From Nemertoderma westbladi (Eukaryota; Animalia; Xenacoelomorpha): a stretch of DNA of 64,000 nucleotides. The DNA is taken from positions 39,264 to 103,263 of the forward strand of contig JAUCBJ010006157.1 in NCBI GenBank assembly GCA_032718475.1, read 5' to 3'. Both the position numbers and the translations under genes were made by a program. Under the pieces are notes generated by a model that saw nothing but the letters and a program-made list of their open reading frames with translations, was not told the origin of the DNA and searched no databases. Position 1 is the stretch's first letter. Each line of letters opens with the position of its first letter. Below, piece after piece: positions 5,374 through 60,048 of this stretch.

Positions 5374-5402
5374 GTAAGTATAATATTATAATAAACACTA
5401 AA

Positions 5403-14100: not shown

Positions 14101-14376
14101 GTTAGGGGACTGTTCTTTTATGTAGGTCAACTTGAAAGGGGATACTGTTGCCGAAAATTAAACTAATTTATATGGCCAGTATATGTTTTATTTTTTTTAT
14201 TACAACAAAAGGTTGACATGCGCTGGAAGCCTTTCCGCCTATTGGGGCGTCTCCAAATTCCATGATGACGGATTGAAAGTTAATTAATATAAAACTAAAA
14301 GTGTTTAAATTTTACAAGAAAATTAAATAGTGAATGATAAATTAACAACATTTACATATATATTATCTTTGTTTAG

Positions 14377-14635: not shown

Positions 14636-14639
14636 GTAA

Positions 14640-26076: not shown

Positions 26077-26889
26077 ATCTGCTATCGGAGTTTATTAATA
26101 TTAGTATGAGTCAGTATTTAGGCAAGCGGGCGTCGCTGCCTACTATTCTTTGCCCCCGGACAGTGGGTTTCTCAGCGCCGATGTACCGTTGTCGCGGTGT
26201 TTACGCCAACATGTAGCAACAGCACGACAACGATAATCGACACAAGTCCCACCACTGTCCGTCCCAAAGGCTTGAATCCACTTGAGGTTATCTCGGTAGA
26301 GTTAGGCTACTTTACAATTGCGATTAGCTACTGTAAACACACTTTAGTAGTATCATTCACCTATAAACGCACAAATTCCATACAATCATTACTTACTGCA
26401 CACATGCAGGCCATTTTGTCCGTTAGTCAGTGTCTTCCAGAATGTCACGTTATTACTATGTATCCTTGGATACTAATAGTGCGCTATGTATTCTCTTATG
26501 CTACGCAATGGGGCAAGCTTTTATTGTTCCTTTAACTTGCTTCTAATTCTAGCGTGGGTGTTGCCATGGTGACATTATGGAAAACTAGCGGTAGAATTAG
26601 GGTAATTCTCATGCATACAGATCTGGGATGCTATTTAATAGTAATTCTTTAATTGTCAATATCCTCTTTATGCATGATTTTATAAATTTTATCGGCTATT
26701 GACTATATGTTGGAGATTCTCGCACACTAATACACTCAATAAGATGAATCTCCGCTCCCATGATCTATTAATTAATGGAATTTTGGGAATGTTATAAATT
26801 GTACAAAATGACAATTTATGAAATTCATTTAAAATATGAATTTAAATTTATTCCCGTGAATTTTATTATTTGATGTTAAAATTGACACA

Positions 26890-27185
26890 ATTTGATTCCA
26901 GAGCAGGTCTGGGGACATAGGATCCTTAATTCTATGAAATTTGTCTTTTAAGAGTATCGGTAAGGGCTACGATATCTTAATCGACTAGAATTGTTAACGG
27001 ATCTGAATTTTACAGATTTTAATAAATATTAAATTAATATTTAAGATGGGCACCGATTTATTCCAGAACTTGTCTGGGGACGTTAACCACTGATTCTAGA
27101 ATTTGTCTTTCAAGTATATCGGTGGGTGCCACGATATCTTAATCGACTAGAATTACAGATGGTCAAAAGGTTTAACAGATTTATT
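26890..27185. repeat. Diverged ~165-bp direct duplication in the BEL inter-ORF region
   Basis: GTCTGGGGAC..ATTTGTCTTT..ACGATATCTTAATCGACTAGAATT present twice. Confidence 0.75.
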
Positions 27186-27704
27186 TGCGTTTTACGCTAC
27201 TGTTAGAGGGACATCACGCTACTATATGTATTATTTGAAATAAGGTAGAAGAGCAATATCGCACGAAGCAATGTCAGTGTGAAGAGGCAAGTCGTTTCCA
27301 AGGTCTACCCAGAGCTTGGTTTAGCCGAGACACGAGGATCTGAACTTTGCATTCCTAATACTCTGCCTACCAATAATACTTAAATATAGTAGTGGCTTTA
27401 TTGTACTTTAATAAGTACTGACATGTCATCTTACTATAGTCACGTATTTATAATATGATACGGACAGTAAGGAAAGAGAAAAAATAATTATTTCTCGCCG
27501 TCGCACTAAATATATATTATAAATAATTACATACGTAATAAACACTAATATATTGCACTAATCTACTAAATAATCCCTAAAATAACATTCTACTAAATAA
27601 AATTAAAGAAAACGATTATAATAAAATTACATAATAATACATACATAAATATAAAATAAAAACAAATATAAAATGATATAGTCACACGCCCACTCCACAT
27701 GCTA

Positions 27705-30700
27705 TCATGTTATGGAGTCCCTAGATATTTGTCGGATTAGGGAAGTAGTCGTAGGAAGAGTATCTTGCCTTCCATAGTTTCCGGACAGTTTTCGGTCTCT
27801 TTCCAGTAAACATAAACGACTAGCTGGGCGATTGAGTTGTTGTGTTACTTTCTCCGCTCCCTTGGCCTGTCTAACCTCCGCCGTGGTAAGATGAGGAGGC
27901 CATTCTTCTTCTTCTTTACTTAAGAAGTCGGATCCACCTAACCAGCCTGGAGTATCTATTAGTTCTTGAGGAGTTGCTCCTCTGGAAGCGATGTCGGCTG
28001 GATTAATCGTCCCAAGGCAATGTCTCCATTGATCTACATTGGAGTTAATATCGTCATTATCTGAGGAGTATGGTGTTCCCTCAGTTGGATCGTCCACATC
28101 ACTGCTCTCCACTTCCCTATCGTTGACTTGATATATTTGTTCGTGTGGCATTCTCTCTTCGAGAGTTCTACGGGAAGGGCCAGTAAAGTACCAACCTACT
28201 CTAGTTCTTACCGCATAGGTTTGCAGTGGCTGTGGTTGAGCAGGCCGTTTCTCCAATGTCTCAAGCGCCTCGTGCGCGTTTTGGCCGATGAGTATTTGCA
28301 CTCCAGGATAATCTGTCTGGAATCGAGGTATCTTAAGATGTTGGATGCTCTCATTCTCGTCCCAATTATAAAGGTCTGCTTGAGTAGTAGCGAAGTTCTT
28401 TATAGCCACCATTTTTACTGACCTTATACCTTGTGTTCCTAACTTATCCTGGGGGGTGGACAACACACCTACATAGTAATCTGCCGTCAGGGTAGATTTC
28501 CAAACCTGCATAATTCCTGACATATTCAATTTAGTCCGGAACTTGGGTTGTCCAGTAAAGATATCTTCGGCTAGTTCTTGATCGATGAATGTTCCTGTGC
28601 TGCCGGAGTCCAGGAGGGCGTTCACTATGTAACTTTTGTTAAGACCATGAACTCTTACCTGCACTACAGGAAATTCTCTGATTCCTACGTTGGAAGTTGG
28701 AGCTTTCCAAGATGGTTGTTTGGCGAAAGTAGTTGGGGGAAACTCATCGTTGATGTCCTTTTCGTAAGTAAGTGCTCGATACACTGCGGTATTTATTAGA
28801 TAACAGGATTCATTGGCGTCGGAGAATTCGTCAGTATAGAATCCTTCCATCTCAGACTCCTGATCAGTGTCATTTACATCACTGAATTGGACATGTAGTT
28901 CGGGCTCACTTACCTGACTCTGTTTGTCTCGTTCGAACTCACTGTGTAACAAGATGTGATGTTTCACGCCACACTTTGCACACTTTATGTCGGAGTAACA
29001 GGTTCGCCGTTGGTGTCCTGGTCTGAGGCAATTATAGCATAACCGCTTGTCCTACACGACTGTACGTCTGTCTACCAGGGATTTCTTTAGAAATTCAGCA
29101 CACGCACTCAAACGGTGGGTCCCGTCGCACAGCGCACAGTTAGGTTTTATGTTACTCACTTTACCTTGGGTAGCTTGATGCACTCTCGTTTTTTCTTCGG
29201 GTTTTCTTCGGTGCATTCTGTTAGGAGACTGAGGAGGGGTCTTGGCAACCTGTTCTCTCCTATCGTTGTTTCGAGCCTTGTATTTACTTAAGTCCTTTGA
29301 GGTTTTGTCAACGTAGTAAGATCGTTCTGTATCCTTTCCGCTGTCCTCTTCTTGAGAAGCTTGGCTTTCGCCGTCGTCAGTGTAACACACCGGTGTTACT
29401 CTTCTCCTAGAAGCGGGTTTCTCACTTACCTTATTTTCCGATGTTTTCTCTCTGGACTGCTTGATGAGTTGTAGTTTTACTTCACCATCTAAGAAAGACA
29501 TGAGATCAGCCATGGTAGGACTTCGTCGTTGTTGTTCATTCATGTACAACACTTTCTTGTCCCAGCGTGTACATACTCCGCCTTTTGGTAAAGTAGAGAC
29601 TACGGCTCCAATAACCATGGAACTCTGATATTCATGCGACTTACCTAACCAGTCCAGTTGTCTACAGATCTCTTGAATTTCATCGGAAAACTCTATAATC
29701 CCGCTACTAAGGAAGTGTCGGGGGGCTACTAATTTTGCATACAAATACTTAGCTATGTTATCCTTGTTACCATACCTGATATTTAATGTATCCCAAACTT
29801 GTCTTAATCCATCTGGATGTCCAATAAACTTTAACGCCATTAACTTGGGAGGTCCTTCCAAGCACTTGATGAGGAATCTAAGTTTCTCTCCGTTAGATAG
29901 TACAGAGTTCTGTATGCTATCTTTGTAATATTCGTTGAAAGGTAACCATTTCATCTCATCTCCATTGAATTTGACGATCTCTCCCACTTTGACCGCTTGG
30001 CGGGCTTCTGTTCTAGCCATCTGACGCGTAAAGCTTTCTTGGGCCATCGTGTTATTTAATATCGAATTATCGGTATATAAATTTCCTGGATTATTATCAG
30101 GTCTATAGGGAATATCATTAACAATAGGTTTATAATCACCCTTAATAGGGTTTGCTATAGGAGTTCCTACTTCACTAGCAGTATAGATGCGTGTAGGCTC
30201 CACACCTTGCGCATGTAATACTTCAGACCTAACAGGTTGACACAAGGTTACAGGGGGTATTGGTATGCCCTTTTGTATATTGACTAATTTGTCGCGTTCC
30301 AGTGCGATACTTTGCTGCACTTCTTGCAACTCTGCTCTACTTTCCCTTACTGTTCCCTTAAGCTGGTGGACAGTCTCCTGCATCTGTCCGAGCAGGAGAT
30401 TCATCCCCCGCCGTCCCTCCTCTACCCACTCAACCGCCGAAGCGGGAGTCGCCAACATAGTAGCGGGCTGACGCGGGACGACGGGAGACAAATCTTTGAT
30501 TTCTCTCTCTGCTATCCGGACAGGGATATTCTCTTGGACTGTTCTACCGGGTACAGGGAGTGTAGTACTATGTAAAGGGAATTTAGAGTTAAGCTCTGGA
30601 AGTACAGGGGTCTCTAATACAGGGGTGACTTTTGGAACGACAGGCCTAATTATTTCAGGCTCATCAACTATAGTAGGGAGTCTTTTGACCTTAATAATTT

Positions 30701-32342
30701 GGTCTGTAGGTTCTATACTACTCAAGTCTGTGCTAGCTAGCTGTCTTCTGACAGCTGGGGGCAAATCAGGCAATTTGCGACGGTAAGATGTTTTTCTACG
30801 CCTGCTTAGATGAGATCTATTTCCTCCGCCTTCAGGATCGGTGGTCTCGCCTTCCTCCGAGGATGTGTATCCCTGGCGCTTGGGAGTAGATTTTCTCATC
30901 ATCTGCATTTGATTAGCGTTAAACTGTTTATTTATGCTGTCTTGCGTCTCTTGCAGATTTTCCAACTCCAGTTGGATAGTCTCCTCAGAAGCTCTCCGTT
31001 CTGCTTCTGCCACTGCTGCTTTTCTTTCTGCTTCTGCTTCTGCCGCCTTTCTTTCGGCTTCTGCTTTTGCCGCTTTTCTTTCGGCTTCTGCTTCTGCCGC
31101 CTTTCTTTCGGCTTCGGCTTCTGCCGCTTTTCTTTCGGCTTCTGCTTCTGCCGCCGCTGCTGCTGCCACCTTTCTTTTCTCTATCCGTTCTTTCTTTACT
31201 TGTTCTTCTCGGACTCTAGTGAGGCGGAGTTTTTCATCAAATTCAGCTTGGTTTGCAGCTAACATTTCCGCATCGATTGAGTCCAACACAAGCTTAGTTC
31301 CTTCACTATTAGGGGAAAGCCCAGACAGCCGTCTCCTCAACTCATCGTCTCCTAGAAATCGCTGATAGTCGGACAGATAAATGTCGATAGTGTCTCTAGT
31401 TCGCGGTTTCTCTGCGGTCTCTTCGCTTTCCGCTTGAGAAAGGGTGGCATAAGTTGGTTCTTCATAGGTTGATCTCTCAGCCAGCTGGGATTTCCACTGG
31501 GCCGTTTCCTGTACTTTGAGACCTACCCGATGGAACCAAGTTTTGACAGCAACCTGCAGCGACGTGTCCTGTTTTCTTTTGGAAGTTTCCTCAAAGGCTG
31601 ATAGGATTAGTCGAATGCGTAGGGTTCTTTCACGTACTTGGTATAGCAGCTCTTCCTGCTCTTGAGGTCCTTGGGGTTGTCGAAACAGTTGTTCTTCCAA
31701 TCTCTCCAAGGAGCTGAAGAATCCCTGCACATATCCTGCTGCCGACCTCTTCCAAACAGCTGGATCCATTGTATCTTTAGCCACTCCCATCCTGTGTATA
31801 TCTTCCCAAGTAGCCTCGGACAGATCCAACGGGAGTCCGAGTCCGGGAAAGTTCCATTGTGACTCGACAATAGACATCAATTCTTCCCTGGCGTATCCCG
31901 CATGATTATCTTGGGTTGCTCGCTTATTTCTCGCCCAGTCGGCTTGATGTTCCTCCACCGCAATGAATATGGTAGTTAGCACTGCAGCAGGAAGGGTGAG
32001 AAGGGGGTCCGAGTAGACTGTAGTAGTCATCTGCACTCCACGTTCGGGGGTCAGCTCTACAGTATCCGAACTACTGGAGCTATCGGGTCGCTGGGAACTA
32101 GGTTCGTGAACAAGATGTTGCTGCGATAGGACAGCTGCCTCTTGGTTCCGTTTGACCTGGGCCCGAGTGCCTATGATGGACCTATGGTGGATTAGCCTAG
32201 GGTCTGATACTACTGGAGGGATGACCTTTCTTACAGTAGGAGGTGAACTGAACTCTTTTCTTAATCGCTCCACACTCCTATCTGTGTCACAGATGGTTGT
32301 ATCGATTAGACTGTCTGACAGGTTTTTCTGAGTGTCAGACAT
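27705..32342 (-). CDS. BEL/Pao gag-protease polyprotein, 1546 codons with in-frame TAG at 29052-29054; RT and integrase core deleted
   Basis: DUF1759-type FNGDEMKWLPF..LSNGEKLRFL; knuckles CALCDGTHRLSAC * CYNCLRPGHQRRTC and CAKCGVKHHILLH; NALLDSGS protease; RTRVGW; WRHCLGTINPADIASRG (RNase H end); LNRPASRLCLLE (pol C-terminus). Confidence 0.85.
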
Positions 32343-32419
32343 GTTTAGCTATACAGTTGAATGCTTACTGCTATAGTTACAGTTAAAGCAAGTCTAGTAA
32401 TTCAGTATGACCGTTGGCC

Positions 32420-35727: not shown

Positions 35728-36423
35728 TTGACATCTACAAAGGTTGAGACTACACTCAAAACCGGTCTAACAGCGATTAACAACGAAATAGTTGGTTGGC
35801 GACAGGAGAGAGTTATCGAGGATTCCTCCGCAAACCCTTGTGAGTGGTCACAAGTGGTGGGGAAGAAGAAACGACTCCACTCCGACTCCTCACATGCAGA
35901 TAAACTCACTGCTGAAGACGTTGAGAAAGAGGTAAAGGAACAACGGGAAAAGGAGCGAAATATAATAATAAACGGTCTCGCGGTACCAGATTCAAGATTG
36001 GATGACCTTGAAACTGTCAACAAATTCCTAATCGAAGGTTTCCAACTTCACTCGGAGCAGCCAGCTGTTGAAGTTCTGTTCAGACGACCCCAGCGCGGTA
36101 CGAGGTCATCAATGTATATTGTTAAACTATCGTCAACTGACTGTAGAGCTAAGATTATTAAAACGAAGAACAAACTCCGGGAATCTTCCCAGCACGCTAA
36201 TGTCTATGTCTCGCTAGACTTGACAAAGCTACAGTCGAGTCAGGCATTCATTAAACGACAGACACGGCGCGAATCTGGCAGATACGGATCTGAATACAGA
36301 CGTGGCAGGCCGACAAGTAACGAACAACCGTCGGACACAGCAACGTATTTACGTGGATCGGTTGGTAGTGCTGGTACCTCTACTCTCCAGGCGGGATCAA
36401 CATCCATCCAGGAAAACGAATAG
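35728..36423 (+). CDS. LINE ORF1 (probably 5'-truncated)
   Basis: WSQVVGKKK, EKERNIIINGL, MYIVKL, VYVSLDLT are typical of CR1-group ORF1p. Confidence 0.75.
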   Translation: MTSTKVETTLKTGLTAINNEIVGWRQERVIEDSSANPCEWSQVVGKKKRLHSDSSHADKLTAEDVEKEVKEQREKERNIIINGLAVPDSRLDDLETVNKFLIEGFQLHSEQPAVEVLFRRPQRGTRSSMYIVKLSSTDCRAKIIKTKNKLRESSQHANVYVSLDLTKLQSSQAFIKRQTRRESGRYGSEYRRGRPTSNEQPSDTATYLRGSVGSAGTSTLQAGSTSIQENE

Positions 36424-38748
36424 GGGGGGAACATTCTCAAACAGACATCACCATCGAGGATAACCCGTTTCTAGAATGTTGCTGCTTTAATGCCCAATCT
36501 CTGGGCAATAAATTACCAGATTTAGATTCTTTTTTATCTACGCACCGTTTGGATATTGTAGGAATTACAGAAAGTTGGTTGACAGACTCAATTGCCGATG
36601 GAATGGTCAATGGTTCTGGGAGATACAACATTTATCGTAAGGATCGGTCATCCTCATCAGTTGGAGGTGGGGTTGCCATTTTAGTTAAGAAACATTTGCA
36701 ATGCTTGCCGGTTTGTTTAAAAACTGATAATATGACGGATGATTTAGAATTGGTTGCAGTGGATCTTATTGGAGAAACACGCTGTAGACTTATATGTGTC
36801 TATCGCCCCCCATCACAATCGATCGATAAGGATGAACGTTTGTGTGCCTATTTATCTAAGCTTTGTGACGTTGACTGCCCGGTATCTATTTTTGGTGATT
36901 TTAACCTTCCTTATTACGACTGGGGAACTCATAGCCACCCCGATAATATTCTTTATAATTTATTTTCGACCTTTATTTTAGAAAACGGTTTAAACCAGTT
37001 ACAACTAAAGCCAACACGTATGGGTCATGTACTGGATTTAGTATTTACATCTGAGGACTTTTTTGTATCTAATGTTAACACAAGCACCACTTTTTGTACT
37101 AGTGATCATGATAGCGTTGTTTTTAGCATTCTAGCACCTAAACATGTTTTCAGTTCCAAAAATGAAAGTACAGGTTTCTATGATTTTAAAAAAGCTAATT
37201 ATCAGGATTTTTCTGTTTTTATTCAGAGCCAAAACTGGGTTGATATATTCGAAAGCTGTGTAAACGTAGACAATTATTGGGATGCTTTTCTTGGTGTATT
37301 AAAAACGGGCATAGATCAATTTGTGCCTTTCATAACCTTTAGTAAAAAAAAGTCACATCCGTTTTTTGTTACTGATTTACAAAGAAAGAAAAAATTATTG
37401 TGGCGGAGACGTCACACAGATGTTGGCAGACAAGAATACAATAAGTGCGCCCAGGCTTTAAAGAAGGCTCTATATAGGGCCGCTTGCATTCGAGAAAATA
37501 AAATTCTGTCCTCAGACAGTTCTGAGGGAATGTTCAAATATGTAAACTCAAAACGGAAAGTTAAATCTGGTATATCCGCTCTTAAGATAAATGGCAAAAT
37601 TATTATCGATGATGTAACGAGAGCAAATATATTTTCTAGCATTTTTTCAGAAAATTTCACAAAAGATAATAATACAGTGCCTTCCATTCCCAGAAGAGTT
37701 CCACATAATGTTAATAAATGTACTATTGATTTTTCTCCAGATGCTATTTATTCTGTGCTTAGAAAACTAGATGGGAAATTGAGTAGAACTCCAGATGGAG
37801 TACCCAGTTATATTTTTTCGAAACTTCCAAGGTGCTTATCTATTCCATTATCAGTTATTTTTAATGTATCTTTCTGTTCAAGTGCATTGCCTACAGTTTG
37901 GCGCACAGCCTTAATTATACCGTTGTTTAAAAAAGATGATCATACTAATCCTTATAATTATAGACCGGTCTCTCTCACATGTGTCAGTTGTAAGATTATG
38001 GAGATTTGCATAAAAAATGAAATCTTAGATTATCTACGTGCAAATAATATCATAAGTAGGGCACAGCATGGTTTTGTAAAACGTCGTAGCACATGTACAC
38101 AACTGTTAGAGTGCACCAATAATTGGTTCAAATTATTAGATGATCGTAAGGATGTAGATATAATATACGTTGACTGTGCAAAGGCATTCGACTCTGTAGT
38201 TCATTCTAAGTTAATTTGTAAACTTTTAAGTTACGGTATTAGTGGTAATTTATTACTTTGGATCAGTGCTTTCTTATCAAATCGTACGCAAAGTGTGATT
38301 GTAGGTACATCTATTTCGGTTCAAACTAATGTCCTATCTGGTACTGTGCAAGGAAGTGTTTTGGGGCCATTATTATTTTTACTTTACGTAAACGAATTAC
38401 CAGAAATATTAGGCAGCAATTACGTTAGTTGTAAATTATTTGCTGACGATCTGAAATTATACTGTAACTCATCTACGAGTCACCTATTGAATCTAGCTCT
38501 TAAGGATCTGGAATTCTGGACTCAGCAGTGGCAGATTAAAATAGCGGCTCATAAATGCTCTGTGCTTCATATCAGTACAGGTAGAATAGATTGTAATTAC
38601 AGTAATGAATACCATCTATGTGGTTCAAAATTGAGATATGATACATCTTGTAGGGATCTGGGTATAACTATAAGTAGTGATTTAAAGTTTAACTTATACT
38701 TTAGGGAGCAGGTGAAGAAGGCGTATAAAATAGTTAATATGATATTCA
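36369..38748 (+). pseudogene. LINE ORF2, 5' part (APE endonuclease and reverse transcriptase)
   Basis: FNAQSL, GITESW, YRPP, GDFN, LDL, SDH; YRPVSLT, DCAKAFD, GTVQGSVLGP, FADD; cut at the transposon insertion. Confidence 0.92.
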
Positions 38749-38835
38749 TACGGTGGTGAGTTGCGGCCAATTATTGCATTTTTTTTTTAAACGTTTAAAA
38801 AAAGTTATTTAAGTTTGTAAAAAAAAAATAATGTT

Positions 38836-39045
38836 TAAATTAATGTTTTGCTAAAAAAAATTAATGTTTTGCTAAAAAAAAGTTAATGTTTTGTTAAAAA
38901 AAATTAATGTTTTGCTAAAAAAAAATTAATGTTTTGCTAAAAAAAATTAATGTTTTGCTAAAAAAAAATTAATGTTTTGCTAAAAAAAATTAATGTTTTG
39001 CTAAAAAAAAATTAATGTTTTGCTAAAAAAAATTAATGTTTTATA
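38836..39045. repeat. Left subterminal array of ~22-bp units (AATTAATGTTTTGCTAAAAAAA); inverted counterpart at ~42705-42985
   Basis: About 9 copies on the left and ~12 inverted copies on the right. Confidence 0.9.
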
Positions 39046-39449
39046 AAGTATAATTTGAATTTCCCGCTTTCTTCTGGCTTGTTGAAGTGAAGACAGAAGG
39101 CCTATCGAAAGATTTTAACTTTCAGTCTCCCCTTCAGTTGTTGTATTATAATATTAGCTGTAGGTAGATACCGGTACGGTTGGTATGTGTAGGGAAGGGA
39201 AGAAAGGCCTATTATCATATTGGACTATACAAACCTGACACCAACTGCAAGAGTAAGAGTCTTTCACGGATGCTAACTGTACTGTGGATGAGGGTGTGTT
39301 TAGTGTAACGCAGTAAAGTAAAGTAGTGCGCTACATACCGGTACATGCTGTACAGTATATGTACTTTAAGTGCAGTATCAGTACATATATACTGTATAAT
39401 CAATAGCAATAGAGCCTACACGCATGTTATTGTAGTATTGGGCGGCGTC

Positions 39450-41075
39450 ATGGATAATGAGCGACGGCGGCTTTATACTGCCTTACGGCATGAACTAAAC
39501 AATCTTATTTCCGATACAGAAAGACCAACCAGCGGTGGGACAAGTGTGCCGAGTTGTACGTCTTCAGGTTCCTTAGAAAAGGTTCCTTCGGGTTCCTCAG
39601 AAAACACTGTAGATTCGAATTTTATGAGTTGTGACGAGTCTGTCTCTAGGCCTATGTATTCATGTAAAGCAAAAGGTACAGGAAGTTCAAGGTTGCGTTC
39701 CTTACAGCGGGGGCGCCCAAAGTTAAAAGATAAAGCCATTCTGTTCAAATGTTTAGTCGACACAGGTAGGGGCACTGCGGTAATTAAAAAACCCCTTGGT
39801 GCCTCAACTACACTTAGGATTATGGTACCACTGCGACAACCCATTATAAGTGTAAAAAATCTTATCATTGATAAACTCTTTCCTAATGGGAAAAATAGGA
39901 CATTGTTAGCGAAGAAATTACCTTCAGCTCCAAGTGAATACGATTTCACTTTAGTCGATGCGAATAACGATTCCATTGAGAGCTACAAATGTTTAGATGA
40001 ATATTGTGTTGCAAATTGTGTTGTTGGAGTACCACGTATTGACATCTTATGTTGTAAGCTATCGGTAGTTGAAGACTCAACTATAGATCAAAATGTTATT
40101 GACTCAACTATAAATCAAGATGTTATTGACACAGGGGGGCCATTTCGAGAACTCTTATCGTTATTTTTTTTGCATCAACCGCCATCCCTTTTCAGAGGAC
40201 AGTATCCACATTTTACCTTCCGTCACAATTTGGAATTATTAACCAATTTCAAAAACTTAGGTAAAATTGTAGCATTGGGTCTTATTAACGGCGCCGCAGG
40301 TCCACATTTCCTCACCCATTCTCTGGCATGTGCAGTATTAGATATTCCATTTAAAACCGCTCTAGAAGAAGTCCCCCTTGACGAAGAATATCGCGAGAAA
40401 CTAATTTCAATTAAACAATCAATCGATGAGACTACATTTCAGGAATGCATGGGGTCATTCACAGAGCGTTTTGATATGGGGGTGGTAAAGGGTTCCCTAA
40501 GCATAGACGAAAAGGATAGTTTATTGAGTTTATTGTGTCGCCATATTGTTGTTAGCTCAGTTGGGGAAGAGATATATAATTTTAAAGAAGGCCTTAACAT
40601 CTTTGGTGTTTATGATATTATGAGAGAGTATCCTGAGGAGAGTTACAAAGCGTTGACTTTTGTAGAAGTTACTTACGAAGAGGCCAAAATGTGTTTTAAT
40701 CCCATATATGAATCTGGAGAAAAGACAAGACAGCGTGAAAAGGAAATAGAAATAACTTTCAAATTTCATAATTTCATGAAGAAAGCTAGCAAAGGATTAC
40801 TATCAATGGAGATCATTACTAATGATGATACAGTTAGAAAGTTCTTATCACTTGGTGACATTATTCAGTTTGGAAGTGGCTCCCGCTATCCAAACTTTGA
40901 AGGAGAACTTAGATTTTTCCAAACTGAGGACAAGCAAAGACGACTTGTTGGAGATACTTGCGGAAAAGTAATACGATTTCCTATAAATGATCGTTACTTG
41001 TTGGGTTCAAGCGATCAATTTTCGAGGCGTCTGCTGACTGATATGTTTGATGATCTGGGTTTTGGACTTCAGTAG
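39450..41075 (+). CDS. Transposon-encoded HECT-domain E3 ubiquitin ligase-like protein (~541 aa; ORF open from 39345)
   Basis: DTGGPFRE (HECT N-lobe motif), LGKIVALGLING, FKEGL, GDTCGKVIRFP (catalytic Cys), C-terminal GFGLQ* with Phe at -4. Confidence 0.8.
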   Translation: MDNERRRLYTALRHELNNLISDTERPTSGGTSVPSCTSSGSLEKVPSGSSENTVDSNFMSCDESVSRPMYSCKAKGTGSSRLRSLQRGRPKLKDKAILFKCLVDTGRGTAVIKKPLGASTTLRIMVPLRQPIISVKNLIIDKLFPNGKNRTLLAKKLPSAPSEYDFTLVDANNDSIESYKCLDEYCVANCVVGVPRIDILCCKLSVVEDSTIDQNVIDSTINQDVIDTGGPFRELLSLFFLHQPPSLFRGQYPHFTFRHNLELLTNFKNLGKIVALGLINGAAGPHFLTHSLACAVLDIPFKTALEEVPLDEEYREKLISIKQSIDETTFQECMGSFTERFDMGVVKGSLSIDEKDSLLSLLCRHIVVSSVGEEIYNFKEGLNIFGVYDIMREYPEESYKALTFVEVTYEEAKMCFNPIYESGEKTRQREKEIEITFKFHNFMKKASKGLLSMEIITNDDTVRKFLSLGDIIQFGSGSRYPNFEGELRFFQTEDKQRRLVGDTCGKVIRFPINDRYLLGSSDQFSRRLLTDMFDDLGFGLQ

Positions 41076-41080
41076 ATTTT

Positions 41081-41238
41081 TGAGACGGGTTACGGGACTT
41101 CTGCGGGTTTCCCGTCGATTATTGAGACAGGTTATGGGAATTCTGCGGGTTTCCCGTCGATTATTGAGACGGGTTATGGGACTTCTGCGGGTTTCCCGTC
41201 GATTATTGAGACGGGTTATGGGACTTCTGCGGGTTTAC
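41081..41238. repeat. 42-bp tandem repeat (~3.7 copies) between the convergent ORF ends
   Basis: TGAGACGGGTTATGGGACTTCTGCGGGTTTCCCGTCGATTAT repeated from 41081. Confidence 0.9.
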
Positions 41239-41434
41239 TGTCTGTGTGTCTATTATTAATAATTGGTTTAATCAATCATTTAAAATGTTTTTAATAATTA
41301 TAAATCATATGTTCAGTAATTGTTACCTATACTTATTTATTGACAACTATATACAAGTTGGGGAACAAAAAATGCACTTCAAATACAATTGAAATAAATA
41401 CATACAGTAGTAATGCAAATGTGTTTGTATCTTA

Positions 41435-42583
41435 CTAAATATATGAATCAATTTCCTTCATAATAATATTAATTAAGTACAGCGCCGTCGCTTTACAATC
41501 CCCAAGATTTACACATTCTGATGGTTGTTTAAATGATAATTCATTATTTAATAAATAATGACTAAGGTTTTTCACTGATTCTATACAGTTTGGCACATCA
41601 TACGCAAAACATTTCACCTGCTCAATTGAAGAAGCACCTACTGGTCTAAGATAGTTTGGTTTGTCGAGATACAGTATACTTGGCTTTCCACCCTTCGATA
41701 TAATCCCACTCTTCCTCAAACGGTGTGCGTTCCATACCAGGAGCACATTTTCTAGAGTCCTTTGCAGCAAATCCAGGTAAACATAGCGTATTATCTCTAT
41801 ATGTAGGACGTTAGATGTATCAATTAATCCCTCGTAATCTAGCACCATGAAATGGTCCATCCAAAGTTGCAATCCGAGTTGGGGAAATTTCGACCACCAG
41901 GCCTCGATTCTTTGGTTTCGGGAACTTTTCCCATATAAGAAAACTTTCCCGGTCAAAGCACAATTGTCACGGTGTGGAAAGCGTAGAAAACGTTGAATGG
42001 TTTCCACATTCACGTTTTCGGTTCCTCGATCTGAACGTATCAAATTTGGCACGCCCCCCATTGCGCAGACAACTTCTAAAAAATATTGACCTATGATAAA
42101 GGGATCATTATTAGTGGATGCACTCTTCAGCCAAATTAATTTGCGGCTATAACCGTCGATGCAGCCATGGATGGCTAAGCCAAACGGCTTTAGCTTATCC
42201 CATCCGTCCATATGGAATATAAAGTTTGGCCCCTTTGCTATGTAGGTTCGTCTCACAAGTTTATTCCCCAGGCGTTGTTTTACTAGGTCGGGATTTAAGA
42301 CTTTCTGAATGAAGGCCACAATTTCCTCACGGACAAAGAGGCCATACTTGAACAGCAGTATTTTCTTCATATGTCTATAGCCAGAAGAAGGCTCCGCAAG
42401 AATTGCACTAACTATTTCGGGTAACCGTTCGATTTGAAACCTCTTATGCAATTCCATATCGCCCAATCGTCGACGAATTGTTCGTATAGAAATATCCTCA
42501 AAGTGCTCTTCACGCAGTAAGCAAGAGATTTCCTTGTATGTAAATCCCTTCTTAAAGTATTCTAGCAACACGCGGTTGTCCAT
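41435..42583 (-). CDS. DDE transposase (IS3/integrase-like core), 382 aa
   Basis: N-terminal HTH (GFTYKEI..ISIRTIRRRL); HMDGWDKL..GCIDGYSRK, RSDRGTEN and NQRIEAWW give the D-D-E triad; uninterrupted ORF. Confidence 0.92.
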   Translation of the reverse strand: MDNRVLLEYFKKGFTYKEISCLLREEHFEDISIRTIRRRLGDMELHKRFQIERLPEIVSAILAEPSSGYRHMKKILLFKYGLFVREEIVAFIQKVLNPDLVKQRLGNKLVRRTYIAKGPNFIFHMDGWDKLKPFGLAIHGCIDGYSRKLIWLKSASTNNDPFIIGQYFLEVVCAMGGVPNLIRSDRGTENVNVETIQRFLRFPHRDNCALTGKVFLYGKSSRNQRIEAWWSKFPQLGLQLWMDHFMVLDYEGLIDTSNVLHIEIIRYVYLDLLQRTLENVLLVWNAHRLRKSGIISKGGKPSILYLDKPNYLRPVGASSIEQVKCFAYDVPNCIESVKNLSHYLLNNELSFKQPSECVNLGDCKATALYLINIIMKEIDSYI

Positions 42584-43059
42584 GTCCGTACGAAATAATT
42601 AATCGGATAGCTTACCGGTATCGCGTACAATAAGACTACAGTCTAATCGTATTGCACACAATTAACAACCAAGAATGAAGTACCTAAGCCTATGTAGGTC
42701 TACTTATCAAAACATTAATTTTTTTTATCAAAATATAAATTTTTTTTTATCAAAACATTAATTTTTTTTATCAAAACATTATTTTTTTTTTTATCAAAAC
42801 ATTATTTTTTTTAACAAAACATTAATTTTTTTTTATCAAAACATTAATTTTTTTTTATCAAAACATTATTTTTTTAACAAAACATTAATTTTTTTTTATC
42901 AAAACATTAATTTTTTTTTATCAAAACATTATTTTTTTTTAACAAAACATTAATTTTTTTTTAGCAAAACATTAATTTTTTTTTTCAAACTTAAATAACT
43001 TTTTTTAAACGTTTAAAAAAAAATGCAATAATTGGCCGCAACTCACCACCGTATATTCA

Positions 43060-43592
43060 GATGTTTTCATACTGGTAATTTAAACGCAATTCTTACTGCC
43101 TATAAGTCCTACGTGCGACCTATTCTAGAATACTGTACTCCGGTTAGCTCACCCTTTTACTTTGGTACAATTGATTTAATTGAGCGTCTCCAACGGTACT
43201 TTACTCGTAGACTTTTTGCCCGTTGTAACTTAGGCCGTACAAGTTATCTAAACAGGCTGAGAATCTTAGAACTACAGCCTTTAGAAGTACGAAGACATAT
43301 TTTTGATCTTACAATGACTTACAACATTATACATCAACTTGTTGATCTACCACAAGAAATTTTTTTTACTTTTGCAAATACGGTGCGGTGCAATCGAGGA
43401 CATTCTTATAAACTTTTTAAACGTTTTACTAGATTAGAGATAACTAAGTATTCCTATTCAAACCGTGTAGTAAGTGTATGGAACGATTTACCGTCAGACG
43501 TAGTTATGGCAGTCAATATTAATGTTTTTAAGAACTTGTTAAAAAAAGTAGATCTTTTACCTTATTGTAGTTTTGATAGATTTTTGGATTAG
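43060..43592 (+). pseudogene. LINE ORF2, 3' part
   Basis: Removing the transposon plus one TSD restores KIVNMIF-RCFHTG..YKSYVRPILEYC..RGHSYKL..SNRVVSVWNDLP in a single 971-codon frame. Confidence 0.92.
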
Positions 43593-44085: not shown

Positions 44086-46557
44086 ATGGCAGATAAGCGA
44101 AAGATGAATGACAGTCAACAGGACGAGTATAACAATATGCCGCCTTCAAAAGTTGTTATAATTGAAGATATAGAATGCAATAATTACCAAAGCACTCCTG
44201 TGAAACCAAAGCCAGTTGATATTTCCGCCATAATGGATGTTAGTACACCAATGTCATCTCCGAAACCGGAGTGTATTCTGATTTCTCCAGCTGAGGATGT
44301 GATTAATGTCCACAACGATACAGGTAGTACCATACCTGAAGCGAATCTCGTCCACGGAGGATGTAGTATGGCGGAAGATGACAGCGGCGATATTATATTT
44401 GTTAAAGAAGTAAGTTTTAATTCATCGAACAATTCGTCTTTTGGAATAACACCGAGAAAATCCCCCTCCACATGGCGGTTGAGCTCCAGTGCCAGGAAAA
44501 AAACTCCAGTTCGGGAGCCGCTTAAAGAAAATTATAGCGGCGCGCATGAAAATACAGACTCGTATCAATGTAAGCCTACCGCTAGCTGCAGTAAATATTC
44601 CAACCCCGAGCAGAAACGAATATCAGACTATTTCGTTCCAATTTCCTCAAATTTAAAAATTAAATCTACTCCTCAAACGGCCGATAACTATTGTTCCACT
44701 AATGTAAAAGACGGAGTCGGTTTAGCAAAGAGAAGTTTAACGTTCCCTGATGCAGAGGAATCCTGGTGGCCAGACATTTCAGCGTCGATAGATACCTGTA
44801 CACAGTTGGTCTCCAACAGCGATATCCAACAGACCTCGCCAGCAGGTCCATCGATAACAAAGGGACAGACGATACCGTCTGCAGGTCCAACTTTGCCGCC
44901 AGCCAGTGCAGCGGTATCGCCAGCCAGTGCAGCGGCACCGCCAGCCAGTGCAGCGGCACCGCCAGCCAGTGCAGCGGCACCGGCAGTTGGTACGGCGGTA
45001 CCGGCAGTTGGTCCGGTGGTACCTGCAGCCGGTCTGGTGGTACCGGCAGGCGGTCCGGCGGTACCGGCAGGCGGTCCGGCGGTACCGGCAGGCGGTCCGG
45101 CGGTACCGGCAGGCGGTCCGGCGGTACCGGCAGTTGGTCCGGTGGTACCTGCAGCCGGTCTGGTGGTACCGGCAGGCGGTCCGGCGGTACCGGCAGGCGG
45201 TCCGGCGGTACCGGCAGGCGGTCCGGCGGTACCGGCAGGCGGTCCGGCGGTACCGGCAGGCGGTCCGGCGGTACCGGCAGGCGGTCCGGCGGTACCGGCA
45301 GGCGGTCCGCCGGTACCGGCAGCCGGTCCAGTGGTACCGGTACCTGTTGTACTGGAAATCTTGAACTTAGTACCGGCATGCGGTCCAGAGGTACCGTCTG
45401 GAGGGCTATCGGTACCGGCTGGACCAACCTCTCGTGAATGTCTAACAATACCGATTCGTGCATTTTACCGGGGAACAAGGAAGAAACGGGTTAGTTTGGA
45501 CGTTACAGCGCGTAACGCTGGCGTATCGCGTAACGCATTGCCCGTCTCGGATTGGGACAGCCAGTCCACCTCGAGCTGCGAGTCTACGTGTAGCCAATCG
45601 GTGACGGATCAGTGTCGGATAAGCCTGAAGAGATGGTCAGACGCCGATATCGAGAGGAAGAAGAAGCAATTAAAAAGTTTGAAGGCTTGGGAGAACCTGA
45701 TAAGGGCACAGAAGGGCGAGCGGGGGTCCATTACAATCGAGAACTATGTTGATTTCGACGGACCTGTTGAGGGTTTTAATTATATAAAAGATTATATGCA
45801 GGGCGCTCAGGTTAATCTACCCCCACCGTCCAGTACTCCTGGGTGTCATTGTCAGGGCGGGTGTACCGTGGACACTAAGGCCAAGCCGTCCACCTGTTGT
45901 TGCTCGTTCTTCGACGCTCCCTTCCCCTACCTTCGGGACGGGAGGGTGCGCGTTCAACCGAAAGAGTGGCCGATTTACGAGTGCAACTCGCAATGTACAT
46001 GCCCCGCGAGCTGCCCCACGCGGGTCGTACAACGCGGCAGTAAAGTGGACCTGGTCCTCTTCAAAACCCGAGATAAGGGTTGGGGGGTGCGAGCCAACCA
46101 GCTGATCAAGAAGGATGTGTTTGTCTGCGAGTACCTCGGGGAACTGATTACCTTCGAAGAGGGGTCAGAACGACCGGGAACTACCCGCGACACATATCTG
46201 TACGATCTCGATTATTTTAGCGAACGGGTTAATGGCGTTACCACCAACTCTTTATACACAGTGGACGCCCGTAACCACGGGAATATCTCCCACTTTATCA
46301 ACCACGGTTGCAGCCCAAACCTTGACATTTATTGCGTGATGATCGAATCGCGTTTCAAACCTCTCCATCGAGTCGCCTTCTTTGCGTCTCGCATTATTAA
46401 TAAAGGCGAGGAGTTAACAATCGATTACGGGTTTAAGATTACAGAGGAGACCTGCGACACTTCGACCTCTCAAGGCTCTAGCTCTACCGATAGTGCGCCG
46501 GTCACGGAAAAAATGCCATGCAAATGTGGAGCGAAAAAGTGTAGGAAATTTATGTAA
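44086..46557 (+). CDS. SUV39H: SUV39H/Su(var)3-9-family histone H3K9 methyltransferase-like protein, intronless, no recognisable chromodomain, 823 aa
   Basis: LKAWE..ITIENYVDFDGP (SUV39H-type), pre-SET Cys cluster, GWGVR, FVCEYLGE, YLYDLDY, GNISHFINHGCSPN, GEELTIDY, post-SET CKCGAKKCR. Confidence 0.88.
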   Translation: MADKRKMNDSQQDEYNNMPPSKVVIIEDIECNNYQSTPVKPKPVDISAIMDVSTPMSSPKPECILISPAEDVINVHNDTGSTIPEANLVHGGCSMAEDDSGDIIFVKEVSFNSSNNSSFGITPRKSPSTWRLSSSARKKTPVREPLKENYSGAHENTDSYQCKPTASCSKYSNPEQKRISDYFVPISSNLKIKSTPQTADNYCSTNVKDGVGLAKRSLTFPDAEESWWPDISASIDTCTQLVSNSDIQQTSPAGPSITKGQTIPSAGPTLPPASAAVSPASAAAPPASAAAPPASAAAPAVGTAVPAVGPVVPAAGLVVPAGGPAVPAGGPAVPAGGPAVPAGGPAVPAVGPVVPAAGLVVPAGGPAVPAGGPAVPAGGPAVPAGGPAVPAGGPAVPAGGPAVPAGGPPVPAAGPVVPVPVVLEILNLVPACGPEVPSGGLSVPAGPTSRECLTIPIRAFYRGTRKKRVSLDVTARNAGVSRNALPVSDWDSQSTSSCESTCSQSVTDQCRISLKRWSDADIERKKKQLKSLKAWENLIRAQKGERGSITIENYVDFDGPVEGFNYIKDYMQGAQVNLPPPSSTPGCHCQGGCTVDTKAKPSTCCCSFFDAPFPYLRDGRVRVQPKEWPIYECNSQCTCPASCPTRVVQRGSKVDLVLFKTRDKGWGVRANQLIKKDVFVCEYLGELITFEEGSERPGTTRDTYLYDLDYFSERVNGVTTNSLYTVDARNHGNISHFINHGCSPNLDIYCVMIESRFKPLHRVAFFASRIINKGEELTIDYGFKITEETCDTSTSQGSSSTDSAPVTEKMPCKCGAKKCRKFM
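44897..45340 (+). repeat. 21-bp coding minisatellite encoding PASAAAP / PAGGPAV heptads
   Basis: CCGGCAGGCGGTCCGGCGGTA repeated about 20 times in frame. Confidence 0.92.
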
Positions 46558-53185: not shown

Positions 53186-55597
53186 TTACGCCAGTAATCG
53201 AATAGGTCCCTTGTCTGAACCCAAGATGAGCATTTGGTTTAGTGGGAGCGAAGCGAGCGAGGAAACTGTCCCTTTGTACACATCGCTAGTGAGTTTAGTT
53301 ACCGAGGACAACCCCAAATCGTACTGGGGCCCCGTTACCAACACGTTATTGGACGAGGTAACGCCGACCAACTGGTTGCTACCGGCAACCACCGAGAGAC
53401 ACTGAACGTCGCCCCCGACGGCGCATCGCGAGACCACACGCGCGTTGTCCGGTTGCCAGGTAACCACCCCGCCGTCCGTCCCGGAGCTCGCGAAGGTGGC
53501 CACGTCCCCGGGGATCGCGGCTAGTTGGAGGATCTCCCCGTCGTGGACGCGCCACCGCGCCACCAACGAGCCCGCGCCGCCGCGCGCGTCCACCGCGCAG
53601 ACGATCCCCGCGCCCAGGGCCACGCACACGGTCCGTCGGTTGGCCGCCACGCAACGGGGCGGCCCCGGGGGACTGGACGCGACGCGCCACTCTGCGACCC
53701 AACCCTGCGTCACCCTGCAGTCGTAGAGCCGGAGCGACGAGTCGGACGCTACGGCGGCGATCAGCGGCGACGGCCCCGGGAGCGGGGCCGCGGCCACCAA
53801 CGACTTCCCGCCGCCATGGGGCGCAACCGCCACGCAGACACCCACGAACGGGTCCCACAGATGGAGCGAACCGTCGCACGAGTAAGCGAGACGCGAGTGC
53901 GACAGAAAGCCGACGTCGCTAACGGAACGCTTGTGTCGGGAGTAGATTGAACGGGAGCGGGCGTGGAACCGCCCGGAACCGGCGTTCCTCACGGACCACA
54001 GCCGCACCGTGCGGTCCTTCCCGCCGCTAAGGAACGAGGTCTCGTTGTCCAACGCCGCCACGCATCGCACCGCCCCAACGTGGCCCACGAACGTCTGCAG
54101 TTTGAGTCGACGGAAGGCGAACGCGTCTCCGTCCCGATTGGTCGACTGGTTCAACCAATGGGCCTCCCAGTTGCCCCGCAGTACCCGCTCCCCCCGGTTG
54201 ATGGCGCTGTTTATCCGCCCCAGCGGTAGGCCCCCCGTCTCTTCGCGCGACGCCCCCAAGAGGGACTCGGCGGCTACGTGTATCCGATTCCCGGAGAGCC
54301 GCACGGGGGCGCCCAACTCGACGAACCAACTGGCCCGGATCCGGGATTCCGGTTCGGCGAACAACGACTCGGCGTCGCGCCATCTAGCGTGCACCCCCTG
54401 CACCGCGCCTCTCCCGCCCGCGGCGTCCTCTTGCTGCGTGCTGAGCGCTCGCTCATGCGAGTTGCACATGTCCCAGACGAGATCGTGATTGGGTAGGATC
54501 TTCTCCATGTGGATGTCGCCCATCAGCCGACAGAGCGGCACGTAGGCCGAGTGCGCCATCTCGGAGGAGAAGACGGCGGAGAGTTGCTCCAACGCGATCT
54601 CGTTCCAGGACGCCCGCCGCTCGGCCCGGGACGCCGCCAACGGGGGAGACAGTTCGTTACCTTCCGCTGGGAGACGCGACAGACGCACCGGGGAGCCGGC
54701 GGTCGGCTGCTCCGTATCCGGGTCCACCTTGATGTCGATGAACTCCGCGGAGTCCTCCCCCAGCGAGGAGTGGTACAACTCCTCGCGACGACGTCCCGGC
54801 CAGGTGCGTCGCATCCGCTCCTCCACGCCGCCCAGGTTGGGGTCGTTGTGGACCCAACTGAACCAGTAGAACAGCGTCTGGAGCAGCGAGGTCAGGTGCT
54901 CGCGGGCCATGTCGCGCCCGATACGGAAACCCAACTCGTTTATCGCGAGGATCACCTTGCGACACGCCGCTATTCGGGATGAAACACCGCTCGCGAAGAC
55001 GTGACGATGCGACGCGACCAGCGATATAGACGCGGATAACATCGTCTTAAAGATGTCTTTTATGTGATTCATTAAGGCGGAGTCGTTAACAAGAGGGAGA
55101 CACTCGTATAGCAAGGAGAGCGCAGCGATTAGGGCGGCTTCGTTTCGGGGAGTTATTCGAAGCAACGCGGATTGGATCTGTTGGCGGATCCACGGGAACA
55201 TTCCCCGCAGTACCAGCGAGTCGCCGTAATGGACCGCGATCTTGGACATGGTCTCTATAACCTGGGCGGCGTGGAGATCCCCCACTACGTGTACCGCCTC
55301 GGTACGGGACTCCACTAGGTCCATCAACCCGGGACCCAGGTAACAGTCTACCAGCGTCCGCTGCAGACAGCCCACTATGTACCGCGAGGTGAGTATCGGG
55401 CCCAGTTTCATCGAGAGGTTTACTGTCGTCTCCATGGCGATGTCAGGTATCTTTATGTTCTCTGGGATGTCGTCTAGGATGGATACGTCTAGACGTTGGG
55501 AGCCGACTGGTGGGGAGGCGGGGGTATCAGAGTCCTCCTCGGTAGAGCTGCCGTCCTCCGGAACAACCTGGTCGTCGTCCTCGGTTAACTCGTCATT
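53186..55597 (-). CDS. WDR81: WDR81 exon 2 (acidic linker, helical region, WD40 repeats)
   Basis: ttctcag acceptor at 55598; 54 codons lead in frame into the 749-aa ORF; LRGNW..HW, KLQTFVGHVGAVR, FLSGGKDRTVRLW, C-terminal GSDKGPIRLLA*. Confidence 0.9.
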   Translation of the reverse strand, partial: NDELTEDDDQVVPEDGSSTEEDSDTPASPPVGSQRLDVSILDDIPENIKIPDIAMETTVNLSMKLGPILTSRYIVGCLQRTLVDCYLGPGLMDLVESRTEAVHVVGDLHAAQVIETMSKIAVHYGDSLVLRGMFPWIRQQIQSALLRITPRNEAALIAALSLLYECLPLVNDSALMNHIKDIFKTMLSASISLVASHRHVFASGVSSRIAACRKVILAINELGFRIGRDMAREHLTSLLQTLFYWFSWVHNDPNLGGVEERMRRTWPGRRREELYHSSLGEDSAEFIDIKVDPDTEQPTAGSPVRLSRLPAEGNELSPPLAASRAERRASWNEIALEQLSAVFSSEMAHSAYVPLCRLMGDIHMEKILPNHDLVWDMCNSHERALSTQQEDAAGGRGAVQGVHARWRDAESLFAEPESRIRASWFVELGAPVRLSGNRIHVAAESLLGASREETGGLPLGRINSAINRGERVLRGNWEAHWLNQSTNRDGDAFAFRRLKLQTFVGHVGAVRCVAALDNETSFLSGGKDRTVRLWSVRNAGSGRFHARSRSIYSRHKRSVSDVGFLSHSRLAYSCDGSLHLWDPFVGVCVAVAPHGGGKSLVAAAPLPGPSPLIAAVASDSSLRLYDCRVTQGWVAEWRVASSPPGPPRCVAANRRTVCVALGAGIVCAVDARGGAGSLVARWRVHDGEILQLAAIPGDVATFASSGTDGGVVTWQPDNARVVSRCAVGGDVQCLSVVAGSNQLVGVTSSNNVLVTGPQYDLGLSSVTKLTSDVYKGTVSSLASLPLNQMLILGSDKGPIRLLA

Positions 55598-56290
55598 CTG
55601 AGAAATAATATAAAATCACTAATGGCAACCAATACAGAAAGAACAAAAAAAACGCGAATTGTACCACATGTATAATAATTACCAATTTATAGATTATACT
55701 TTCAGTTTTAAATCTTTGGCAATTAAGTGCTAGTTCCAGTTCCAGAATTCCACGATATAGAGTTTCAGTTCAAGTTTCAGTTTTAAAAAATGTCAGTTTC
55801 AGTTCCAGTTCGCAGCCCAAAAAATAACAAATAATATCACTAATTTTGTTAATTGTGTAAAATTTTTGAAAAGTTAAATACGTGAAAGATAATTGCATTA
55901 AAAGGTAAATCCGTTCCAAAATACGTTATCAGTTAAACTTCAATAATAAAGAAATGCGGGGCGATGTATATGGGTGGACAGCATGGACACGTTAACGTGG
56001 GAGGGGTGTATATGTGTTTGGACGAGCGATGAAAGAAGCGAGCTTAGCATACGGGTGCCGCTGTTTCAACCGTTGTATGTCGTTCAGTCGGTCTGTCACA
56101 TAATGCACATCAAAAGTCTAAAATAGTTATTTAGTGTATGATAAGCTTGTCTTCCCGTCCCACGAACTTGTTAATTTCTAAATATTAGTTTGTAAATAAT
56201 TTAATAGCCTTTATAACAGAGGGCTGGTAGGTCTCAGTCTCAGTAGTACTATGAATCAGAGTTTATTATAGAGCACAACTTAGAGCTAAC

Positions 56291-59200: not shown

Positions 59201-59842
59201 GTAATACGGTTGTAGCACATAGCAGGTGGAGGGCGTTTCTATGATACAGTATCCCATGGATATGGCACTCTGTTTGATAAGGATTTCACTGCCATTCGCC
59301 GTTATCTGCATAGCTGCAGGTGTTTCGGACTGATTGAACGATTCCATAGAGGGGGTCCGAATGACGGGGATGTTGTATATCTTCTTGAGATATTGTAACA
59401 TACAGTTTTGCGAATTCTTTCTGGTTTTCTGAGCAACATTGTTACGCGCATACGGGAATTTATTGACACAATTTGTCCAGTGCTTTTCTATATTAGTTAC
59501 GTGTAATAATTGGTTATACTGAGATAGACTTGAATTTTCCAGATTGTACTTCTGCTCCTCTTTCTGGACTTGTTTAAATGTGGATGATTTCGAATATTCT
59601 AGAACAATAATCTTTTGGAAAGGCGCATAAGGTTTAGAATCCGTTTGAAGGATCTCCGTTAAATCTGAATTATGTACCAAATCCAGTAACTGTGAAGGCG
59701 GAGGTACACATTTGTTCGTAAGTAATTGTTGCAGCCAACAATCATCTACGATCGCGACCCATTGTACTGCGCTGCCCAAACGGCGTAAAGGTCCACGCAA
59801 AATCTTCGCTGGTAAATTCAAAGTTTCACAAACACTATTCAT
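56291..59842 (-). CDS. WDR81: WDR81 exon 1 (kinase-like N-terminus and BEACH domain); spliced protein ~1987 aa
   Basis: YSPAKL..KPLFILYQIL, SNLDYLMILNRLAGR, HPIIPWV, RDLTKSKYRLAKGD.QLD, WTPDECIPEFY, WIDLTWGYKL.G; AAG|GTTAG donor at 56291/56290, phase 0. Confidence 0.92.
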
Positions 59843-60048
59843 TAGGCTGGACAGCTAGATGACTGCAACTGGCCACTGCCAGTATGTAGGCCTATTTGTA
59901 ATTCACAAAAAACATAAATAATAACTTGACCGACACAGCAAACTACCTACTGCAAGGTAATCCATTATAATCTAATCATATTTATATTAAAGTCTAAAAC
60001 TAACCGTTCAGAGTTAGCCGGGGTTGTCGGCTCCGAAAGTTGTGTTAA

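Follow-up and report, generated by a model that had tools for sequence, protein, structure and literature searches.

The window analysed here, a stretch of 64,000 nucleotides from contig JAUCBJ010006157.1 of Nemertoderma westbladi, holds at positions 38749-43053 a cut-and-paste DNA transposon of the IS3EU/GingerRoot group with two convergent genes, one encoding its transposase and the other, referred to below as ORF2 (ORF, open reading frame), encoding a protein predicted to have the fold of a HECT ubiquitin ligase. Such a convergent HECT companion is family-wide, and the window copy of it is an in-frame deletion derivative, not an intact gene.

The element and its transposase

The element starts with TACGG and ends with CCGTA, and it is bordered on the left (38743-38748, + strand) and on the right (43054-43059, + strand) by matching copies of TATTCA, a perfect target-site duplication (TSD) of 6 base pairs (bp), for which a chance 6-base match has a probability of about 4e-4. 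The left terminal inverted repeat (TIR; 38749-38817, + strand, TACGGTGG...) pairs with the right one (42986-43053, - strand) in 68 of 69 columns, with 39 bp perfect. Subterminal tandem arrays of a 21-22-bp unit are present at both ends, with 9.6 copies on the left (38837-39042, + strand) and 13.4 copies in inverted orientation on the right (42704-42989, - strand); arrays lie 5' of the transposase in 19 of the 27 HECT-bearing loci described below. To judge from their sequence, these arrays are likely candidates for transposase-binding sites. A further tandem array, with a 42-bp unit and 3.9 copies, separates the two convergent genes (41075-41236, no strand assigned). The idea that it might be a conserved minisatellite was rejected, as arrays between the genes occur in 2 of the 27 loci and are not family-wide.

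The transposon has broken the frame of a host long interspersed nuclear element (LINE), whose 5' part (36369-38748, + strand), encoding endonuclease and reverse transcriptase, continues in the same frame in the 3' part (43060-43592, + strand). When the element and one copy of the TSD are removed, the LINE frame is open over 971 codons. Because the element ends are perfect and this frame is open, the insertion is probably recent. There is no second copy of the element within the window.

The transposase (41435-42583, - strand) is an open frame of 382 amino acids that matches PF24764 at E 2.6e-32 and carries the DDE residues D126, D185 and E227. It aligns end to end with 32 relatives, with two short gaps of about 6-7 residues and with all three residues kept. 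Relatives number 491 among 2383 candidates, and those with names come from a brachiopod, a limpet, corals, a hydrozoan, an anemone and an acorn worm; no relative was found in viral contigs. By eye, the core resembles the DGYDKLKP..NQRIEAWW group (Repbase IS3EU and coral GingerRoot), and the likeness to IS3EU-4_CGi, IS3EU-1_DR and AD_GR-003, likewise judged by eye, takes in the TA..TA ends, the 6-bp TSD, the TIRs and the type of core. IS3EU is defined by TA..TA ends and 6-bp TSDs (PMC10045372; this and the other papers are cited here from excerpts, unless their main text is named). The element has such ends with TIRs, a 6-bp TSD and an IS3EU-clade DDE transposase, and it belongs to IS3EU/GingerRoot. 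Public contigs of the same organism (runs X1-X4) include several likeness classes and several internal deletions, which points to many copies, counted as contigs and not as insertion sites.

An earlier note on this DNA, made from the letters alone, had placed an IS3EU-type transposon here with TAC..GTA repeats, a TATTCA duplication and an uninterrupted DDE transposase, and in all of these it was right, the group assignment being supported by the ends, the TSD, the PF24764 match and the core motifs. It had also called the element intact, which holds for the ends, the TSD and the open transposase and fails for ORF2, from which the start of the HECT domain is missing.

The second gene

ORF2 (39450-41075, + strand) is open over 541 amino acids, against a longest stop-free run of 197 in 1000 shuffles, and profile searches and a structural model identify it as a HECT protein of the G2E3-like kind, from which an internal piece has been deleted in frame. 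The HECT domain that remains (residues 227-539; 40128-41066, + strand) bears the DxGGPxRE motif as DTGGPFRE at residue 227, a candidate catalytic cysteine, Cys504 (40959-40961), and Phe538 at position -4 (41061-41063). Taken alone, ORF2 finds no match in Pfam, PDB or a word-index search, and an exact 30-base pattern from it has none in metagenome contigs. HMMER over 1.84 billion representatives returned 269 relatives, and PF00632 is matched at E 0.01 or better by 39 of the 48 that were scanned from the 150 listed. A profile of 52 sequences matches 65 solved sequences, the best 60 of which are all HECT ligases with E6AP at the top (E 1.7e-22), and in the profile alignment Cys504 falls on the TC of E6AP. 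The alignment-based model has a mean predicted local distance difference test score (pLDDT) of 71.9, exceeding 90 for 279 residues and over most of 231-530, and its top Foldseek and VIA matches are all HECT structures (HUWE1, Smurf2, Rsp5 and UBR5; Z up to 19.6, root-mean-square deviation 4.2 over 332 residues); a fold from the single sequence was uninformative (pLDDT 33). On this modelling ORF2 has a bilobal HECT fold with the candidate catalytic Cys and the -4 Phe, and full-length versions of it may be active ligases.

Relatives keep these features. The cysteine is present in 45 of 51 homologues, with a gap in 4, and in 25 of the 27 loci described below; about 41 of 43 ungapped rows have DxGG, and 44 of 51 homologues have Phe or Tyr at -4. 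Those relatives that bear names are uncharacterised proteins of corals and hydrozoans and often have numerous near-identical members, and the Atlas neighbours of ORF2 bear the name 'G2E3-like'. Homologues carry a variety of extra domains (RING, CUE, SAM, CARD plus caspase, zinc ribbon), the fusion to CARD and caspase domains being seen in homologue P0102.

Upstream of the HECT domain lies an uncharacterised N-terminal domain (about residues 96-205; 39735-40064, + strand) that by eye is like the GGxR..FFPNG domain of six related loci and aligns weakly with it in hhalign (4%, P 0.009). A profile of the relatives' domain gave no hmmsearch match to the window ORF2; the domain itself has no match in Pfam or PDB, and its Atlas match is an unnamed cluster (the region has pLDDT below 50 in both models). 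The earlier note had recognised a convergent ORF of about 541 amino acids with DxGGPxRE, a TC cysteine and a -4 Phe, all now located in the protein, and the HECT fold that it proposed is what both profiles and model return. Its suggestion of a ubiquitin-like fold for the LFPNG..FTLVD segment is unproven, no solved structure or family having matched.

The companion gene across the family

The comparison covers 80 loci, the best among 576 confirmed in metagenomes, chosen by transposase alignment; they were therefore sampled regardless of HECT, the alignment of which is too diverse to serve as a query for loci. A HECT profile built without these loci matches 23 of the 80, and 12 of the 17 with at least 3 kb downstream of the transposase. 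When locus matches were added and the profile iterated, the figures became 27 of 80, 22 of the 31 with at least 2 kb and 15 of the 17 with at least 3 kb, with no match in 10252 reversed segments. All 27 genes lie downstream on the opposite strand, that is, convergent with the transposase; none lies upstream and none on the same strand. The Pfam HECT family is listed for 25 of them, 18 above its cut-off, and clustering the 27 loci at 80% transposase identity gives 22 groups.

A TACGG-type terminus was found in 17 of the 80 loci. In L042 (5.1 kb) and L062 (9.4 kb) the two genes are enclosed by TIRs and flanked by perfect 6-bp TSDs; L051 has TIRs and no TSD. The two genes thus occur together between the same TIRs in other genomes, a comparison that had been proposed from the window alone, and a one-off gene capture is ruled out by the 27 HECT-bearing loci together with the complete elements. 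Two long loci are without HECT: in L034 a LINE adjoins the transposase, and in L039 nothing is recognisable. Named protein relatives come from marine invertebrates.

Some further loci deserve mention in their own right. L052 has, in the slot that HECT takes elsewhere, a PF00069 protein kinase (2956-4352, - strand, E 2.6e-41) in two frames, convergent and about 1 kb from the transposase, which is possibly an alternative cargo and possibly a flanking host gene. Nine genome contigs (L081-L089), probably host DNA in metagenome bins or else prokaryotic relatives, stand outside all counts. In L081, L082, L085 and L086 an intron-broken IS3EU transposase sits in a bacterial metagenome bin and is probably DNA of the host animal; L082 also has convergent HECT exons beside the transposase.

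A predicted p97 adaptor in relatives

In 8 of the 27 HECT-bearing loci, and in 8 of the 13 with at least 900 bases available there, a FAF1-like helix followed by a UBX domain lies upstream of HECT on the same strand; helix and UBX were found in no locus without HECT. The module is inside the TIRs in L062, and in L013 a single ORF holds the N-terminal domain, the helix, UBX and the start of HECT (FAF1 match 8e-4). The helix-UBX alignment has 27 rows (five loci and 22 relatives of L020), matches FAF1 at E 1e-10, and contains a Pfam UBX match in 11 rows. Helix plus UBX boosts p97-UFD1-NPL4, for which V507, Y515, S518 and L519 of FAF1 are required (PMC12630741, PMC13356908). When residue numbers were mapped on the printed FAF1 chain, the V507 position proved to be Leu or Ile in 24 of 24 ungapped rows, Y515 Tyr or Phe in 22 of 24, S518 Ser in 22 of 24 and L519 Leu in 22 of 24, these 24 rows being related and not independent. 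In its order of helix then UBX and in its key helix residues the module of the eight related loci is like the UBH-UBX adaptors FAF1 and FAF2; it differs in being joined to a transposon HECT gene, in mostly lacking the FP loop and in being absent from the window copy. It is a predicted p97 adaptor and may recruit p97.

The deletion in the window copy

The window ORF2 spans positions 37-365 of a family profile of 367 positions, so that the first 36 or so HECT positions are absent. Homologues have a strand-helix-strand segment (L.VRR..W.D....V.F.GE.A) directly before DxGG, where the window copy has an acidic linker, and the N-lobe of this copy is thus incomplete. The stretch of 50 residues that precedes DxGG reaches no more than 1.6 bits on a profile that gives at least 10 bits to 63 of 66 held-out homologues (median 39.7). 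A start of HECT in another frame, or an artefact of an intron, is ruled out, the segment being in no frame.

Other copies come from public contigs of the same organism in runs X1, X2 and X3 (two samples, two studies), X4 being uninformative at the join. In each of the three runs one contig matches the window up to 40129 and then continues with 177 letters that differ from it, the 30 read being in frame. A second has up to 460 differing letters, of which the last 30 encode TVKFMGEDAV, the missing motif, and matches the window from 40128 on. Because same-organism contigs carry these extra letters ending in the missing motif, at least 460 bases, including the start of the HECT N-lobe, have been deleted here in frame. 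The join has a 2-base overlap (40128-40129, + strand), and a 27-bp tandem duplication in the acidic linker (40074-40130, + strand) ends at it. The missing length would be 609 bases (203 codons) if the two X2 contigs adjoin and overlap by 30 bases.

The window copy of ORF2 is thus a deletion derivative, and the deletion likely cripples its ligase. That the short form is instead a working variant, or a slip of assembly, is very improbable. In its favour, the frame stays open across the deletion, the cysteine and tail are retained, and no contig of the three runs bridges the join; contigs drop rare variants, though, and a deletion at a single locus need not appear in them. In the model, residues from further upstream (aligned from about residue 147) do take the place of the missing N-lobe elements, but the parts so filled have pLDDT below 50 (161-195 and 214-225) and are probably driven by the alignment, the missing segment is kept in 63 of 66 homologues, and other internal deletions are seen in the same family.

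The contigs of the four runs include copies of all likeness classes, with other internal deletions and with a transposase stop or frameshift. In one X1 contig ORF2 passes at 40016 directly into the 42-bp array (41147), which makes it a derivative without the whole HECT domain; further deletions remove 636-1403 bases from ORF2 or 252 from the transposase. Among the best 40 of 176 rows, window and other copies differ by 24 single-base coding differences, too few for a test of selection. Of the 9 in ORF2, 4 alter a residue; the transposase has 15, of which 8 do so, and one of the 8 is a stop in other copies.

Proposed function

Because some relatives carry a predicted p97 adaptor, elements of this kind are likely to mark a protein that hinders their movement with ubiquitin and have it extracted. 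The earlier note had suggested that ubiquitination might regulate the transposase or degrade host silencing factors, and both ideas return below as candidate readings. The reading that we put first, with somewhat less than even credence, is that full-length ORF2 ubiquitinates the element's own transposase complex for removal by p97 after the jump, a task for which the window copy is likely crippled. Full-length ORF2 would be an active HECT ligase acting on the transposase complex while it sits on product DNA; the UBX module, where present, would recruit host p97, and p97 would then pull the complex off the DNA. The window copy itself would owe its jump to its own open transposase; other copies would have provided ORF2, or some jumps may do without it. 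ClpX strips MuA from the finished Mu complex, and the resemblance to the phage Mu transpososome would be one of working, an ATP-driven unfoldase removing transposase from a stable product complex; there is no homology, and here the element would itself encode the tagging enzyme and the adaptor. Four points put the transposase complex first among possible targets: the gene is near-fixed in the family, some relatives have the adaptor module, the N-terminal domain weakly tracks the transposase, and ClpX and MuA offer an analogy.

The HECT domain diverges faster than its partner, with a median identity of 23% versus 51% for the transposase in 18 representatives, among which the distances of the two correlate modestly (Spearman 0.41, p 0.011). 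In a tree of 20 of 28 element rows and 17 proteins, the window HECT groups with that of L051 (support 100/98; identity 44%). The transposases of the same two copies share 33% identity, are among the most distant and stand on opposite sides of the deepest split in a FastTree transposase tree, and L008/L009 and L055/L068 show the reverse of this pattern. The HECT module thus appears to have been swapped between element lineages, although chimeric assembly of repeats could mimic part of this. Most pairs of loci are saturated for the ratio of nonsynonymous to synonymous substitution (dN/dS); in two close pairs the HECT ratio is 0.07 (L036/L041, 90 codons) and 0.08 (L009/L015, 49 codons).

Several points weigh against the transposase as target. 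Both the catalytic activity of ORF2 and its substrate are things that we infer, and the divergence and swapping of HECT fit a host-directed role equally. L014 has TIRs and a TSD with no HECT match, and so moved without HECT; in L070/L074 (253 codons, dS 0.04) the HECT dN/dS is 0.46. The helix-UBX module is absent from the window copy and from L051, its closest HECT relative, and five of the eight UBX loci seeded the UBX profile. Only L013 has FP at the place of the FAF1 FPR loop, which has a role in p97 binding, and most loci are without the FP loop. Finally, the tracking of the transposase by the N-terminal domain, seen over six loci (rho 0.58, p 0.031) and not shared by HECT (-0.01), is one of nine tests, would fail correction, and is explained equally well by linkage to the right TIR.

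A serious possibility, if a doubtful one, is that ORF2 is a counter-defence ligase, ubiquitinating a host silencing or restriction factor that p97 would extract from chromatin where UBX is present. A host silencing factor ranks second because HECT diverges fast and is swapped, because homologues bear varied extra domains, and because fungal elements have kinase and TET genes in this slot. Fungal TET+ IS3EU elements resemble the present one in superfamily, in TAYGG..CCRTA ends and in a second enzyme gene opposite to the transposase; their companion is an alpha-kinase with a TET/JBP gene adjoining, not HECT, and escape from methylation silencing has been proposed for them (PMC12730594). Near-fixed presence and orientation across transposases that are 33-78% identical suit a transposition step better, as does the N-terminal domain's weak tracking of the transposase, and neither a host target nor a dN/dS above 1 was found among pairs that are mostly saturated.

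It is improbable that the HECT domain is catalytically dead, serving as a scaffold or decoy that binds E2, ubiquitin or p97, or persisting as an old captured passenger. The HECT domain of mammalian G2E3 is non-functional (PMC3673628), which also tells against the transposase reading and is why the dead domain ranks third; G2E3 and G2E3-like HECTs are highly divergent, lack of constraint being offered as the reason (PMC3673628), the window ORF2 is too divergent for a Pfam match, and deletion derivatives are common. The class IV HECT ligases (G2E3, GL-Metazoa) are like ORF2 in this divergence and in fold matches to Rsp5, HUWE1 and UBR5; they are treated as host genes, and G2E3 has PHD/RING-like fingers (PMC3673628). 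The element HECTs, unlike mammalian G2E3, keep their cysteine and lie inside TIRs, and the conservation of Cys, DxGG and the -4 aromatic residue, together with the low dN/dS of the two close pairs, argues against a dead domain.

Surroundings in the window

The host LINE extends over 35728-43592 (+ strand), with a 231-amino-acid ORF upstream of the 971-codon endonuclease/reverse transcriptase frame, and is itself young, since that frame has no stops apart from the insertion. About 500 bases past it begins an intronless Pre-SET/SET ORF (44089-46557, + strand), SUV39-like by domain order, in which a 21-bp tandem repeat encodes a stretch rich in Ala, Gly and Pro; it may have arisen as a retrocopy, be the passenger of a transposon or be a host gene poor in introns. 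Remains of a BEL/Pao-type long terminal repeat retrotransposon (DUF1759 gag region, protease-like ORF) lie at 23677-32348 (- strand), and a further ORF of 596 amino acids in the same interval and strand has no Pfam match. BEACH and WD40 ORFs with very long exons occupy 53186-59854 (- strand), a gene that by domain order we take to be WDR81-like. Positions 1-15375 hold four large minisatellite arrays (units of 41, 30, 21 and 45 bp; up to 195 copies) that give rise to long spurious ORFs.

Implications

In the literature covered, no report names HECT genes in IS3EU or GingerRoot; supplements, Repbase entries and subscription papers lie beyond that coverage and may name the domain. The words 'HECT' and 'ubiquitin' are absent from the main text of PMC10045372, PMC12730594 and PMC6839031, and the text of PMC3673628 has no 'transpos'. 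Repbase labels ending in _1p and _2p imply, as labels alone, two proteins per IS3EU element. A G2E3 match is recorded among the unclassified repeats of a fish (PMC5638112).

The second gene of animal IS3EU elements, until now poorly described, thus gains an identity and a testable job. To our knowledge, the removal of eukaryotic DDE transposases from their product complexes and the counter-silencing of transposons in animals are open questions, and a two-gene element with a ligase, accompanied in some families by a p97 adaptor, makes both directly testable. The window copy is the wrong template for the bench, because its ligase gene is clipped. There is also a warning for annotation, as expansions of 'G2E3-like' genes may be transposon copies. 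More broadly, and as a conjecture that we would not yet bet on, animal IS3EU elements may encode machinery of their own that tags and extracts proteins, with a FAF1-type p97 adaptor fused to a HECT ligase. It would remove either the transposase or a host block from the DNA and would be an element-encoded eukaryotic counterpart of ClpX in Mu transposition; a large share of the multi-copy 'G2E3-like' genes of marine animal genomes would then be transposon genes, their HECT domains traded between lineages.

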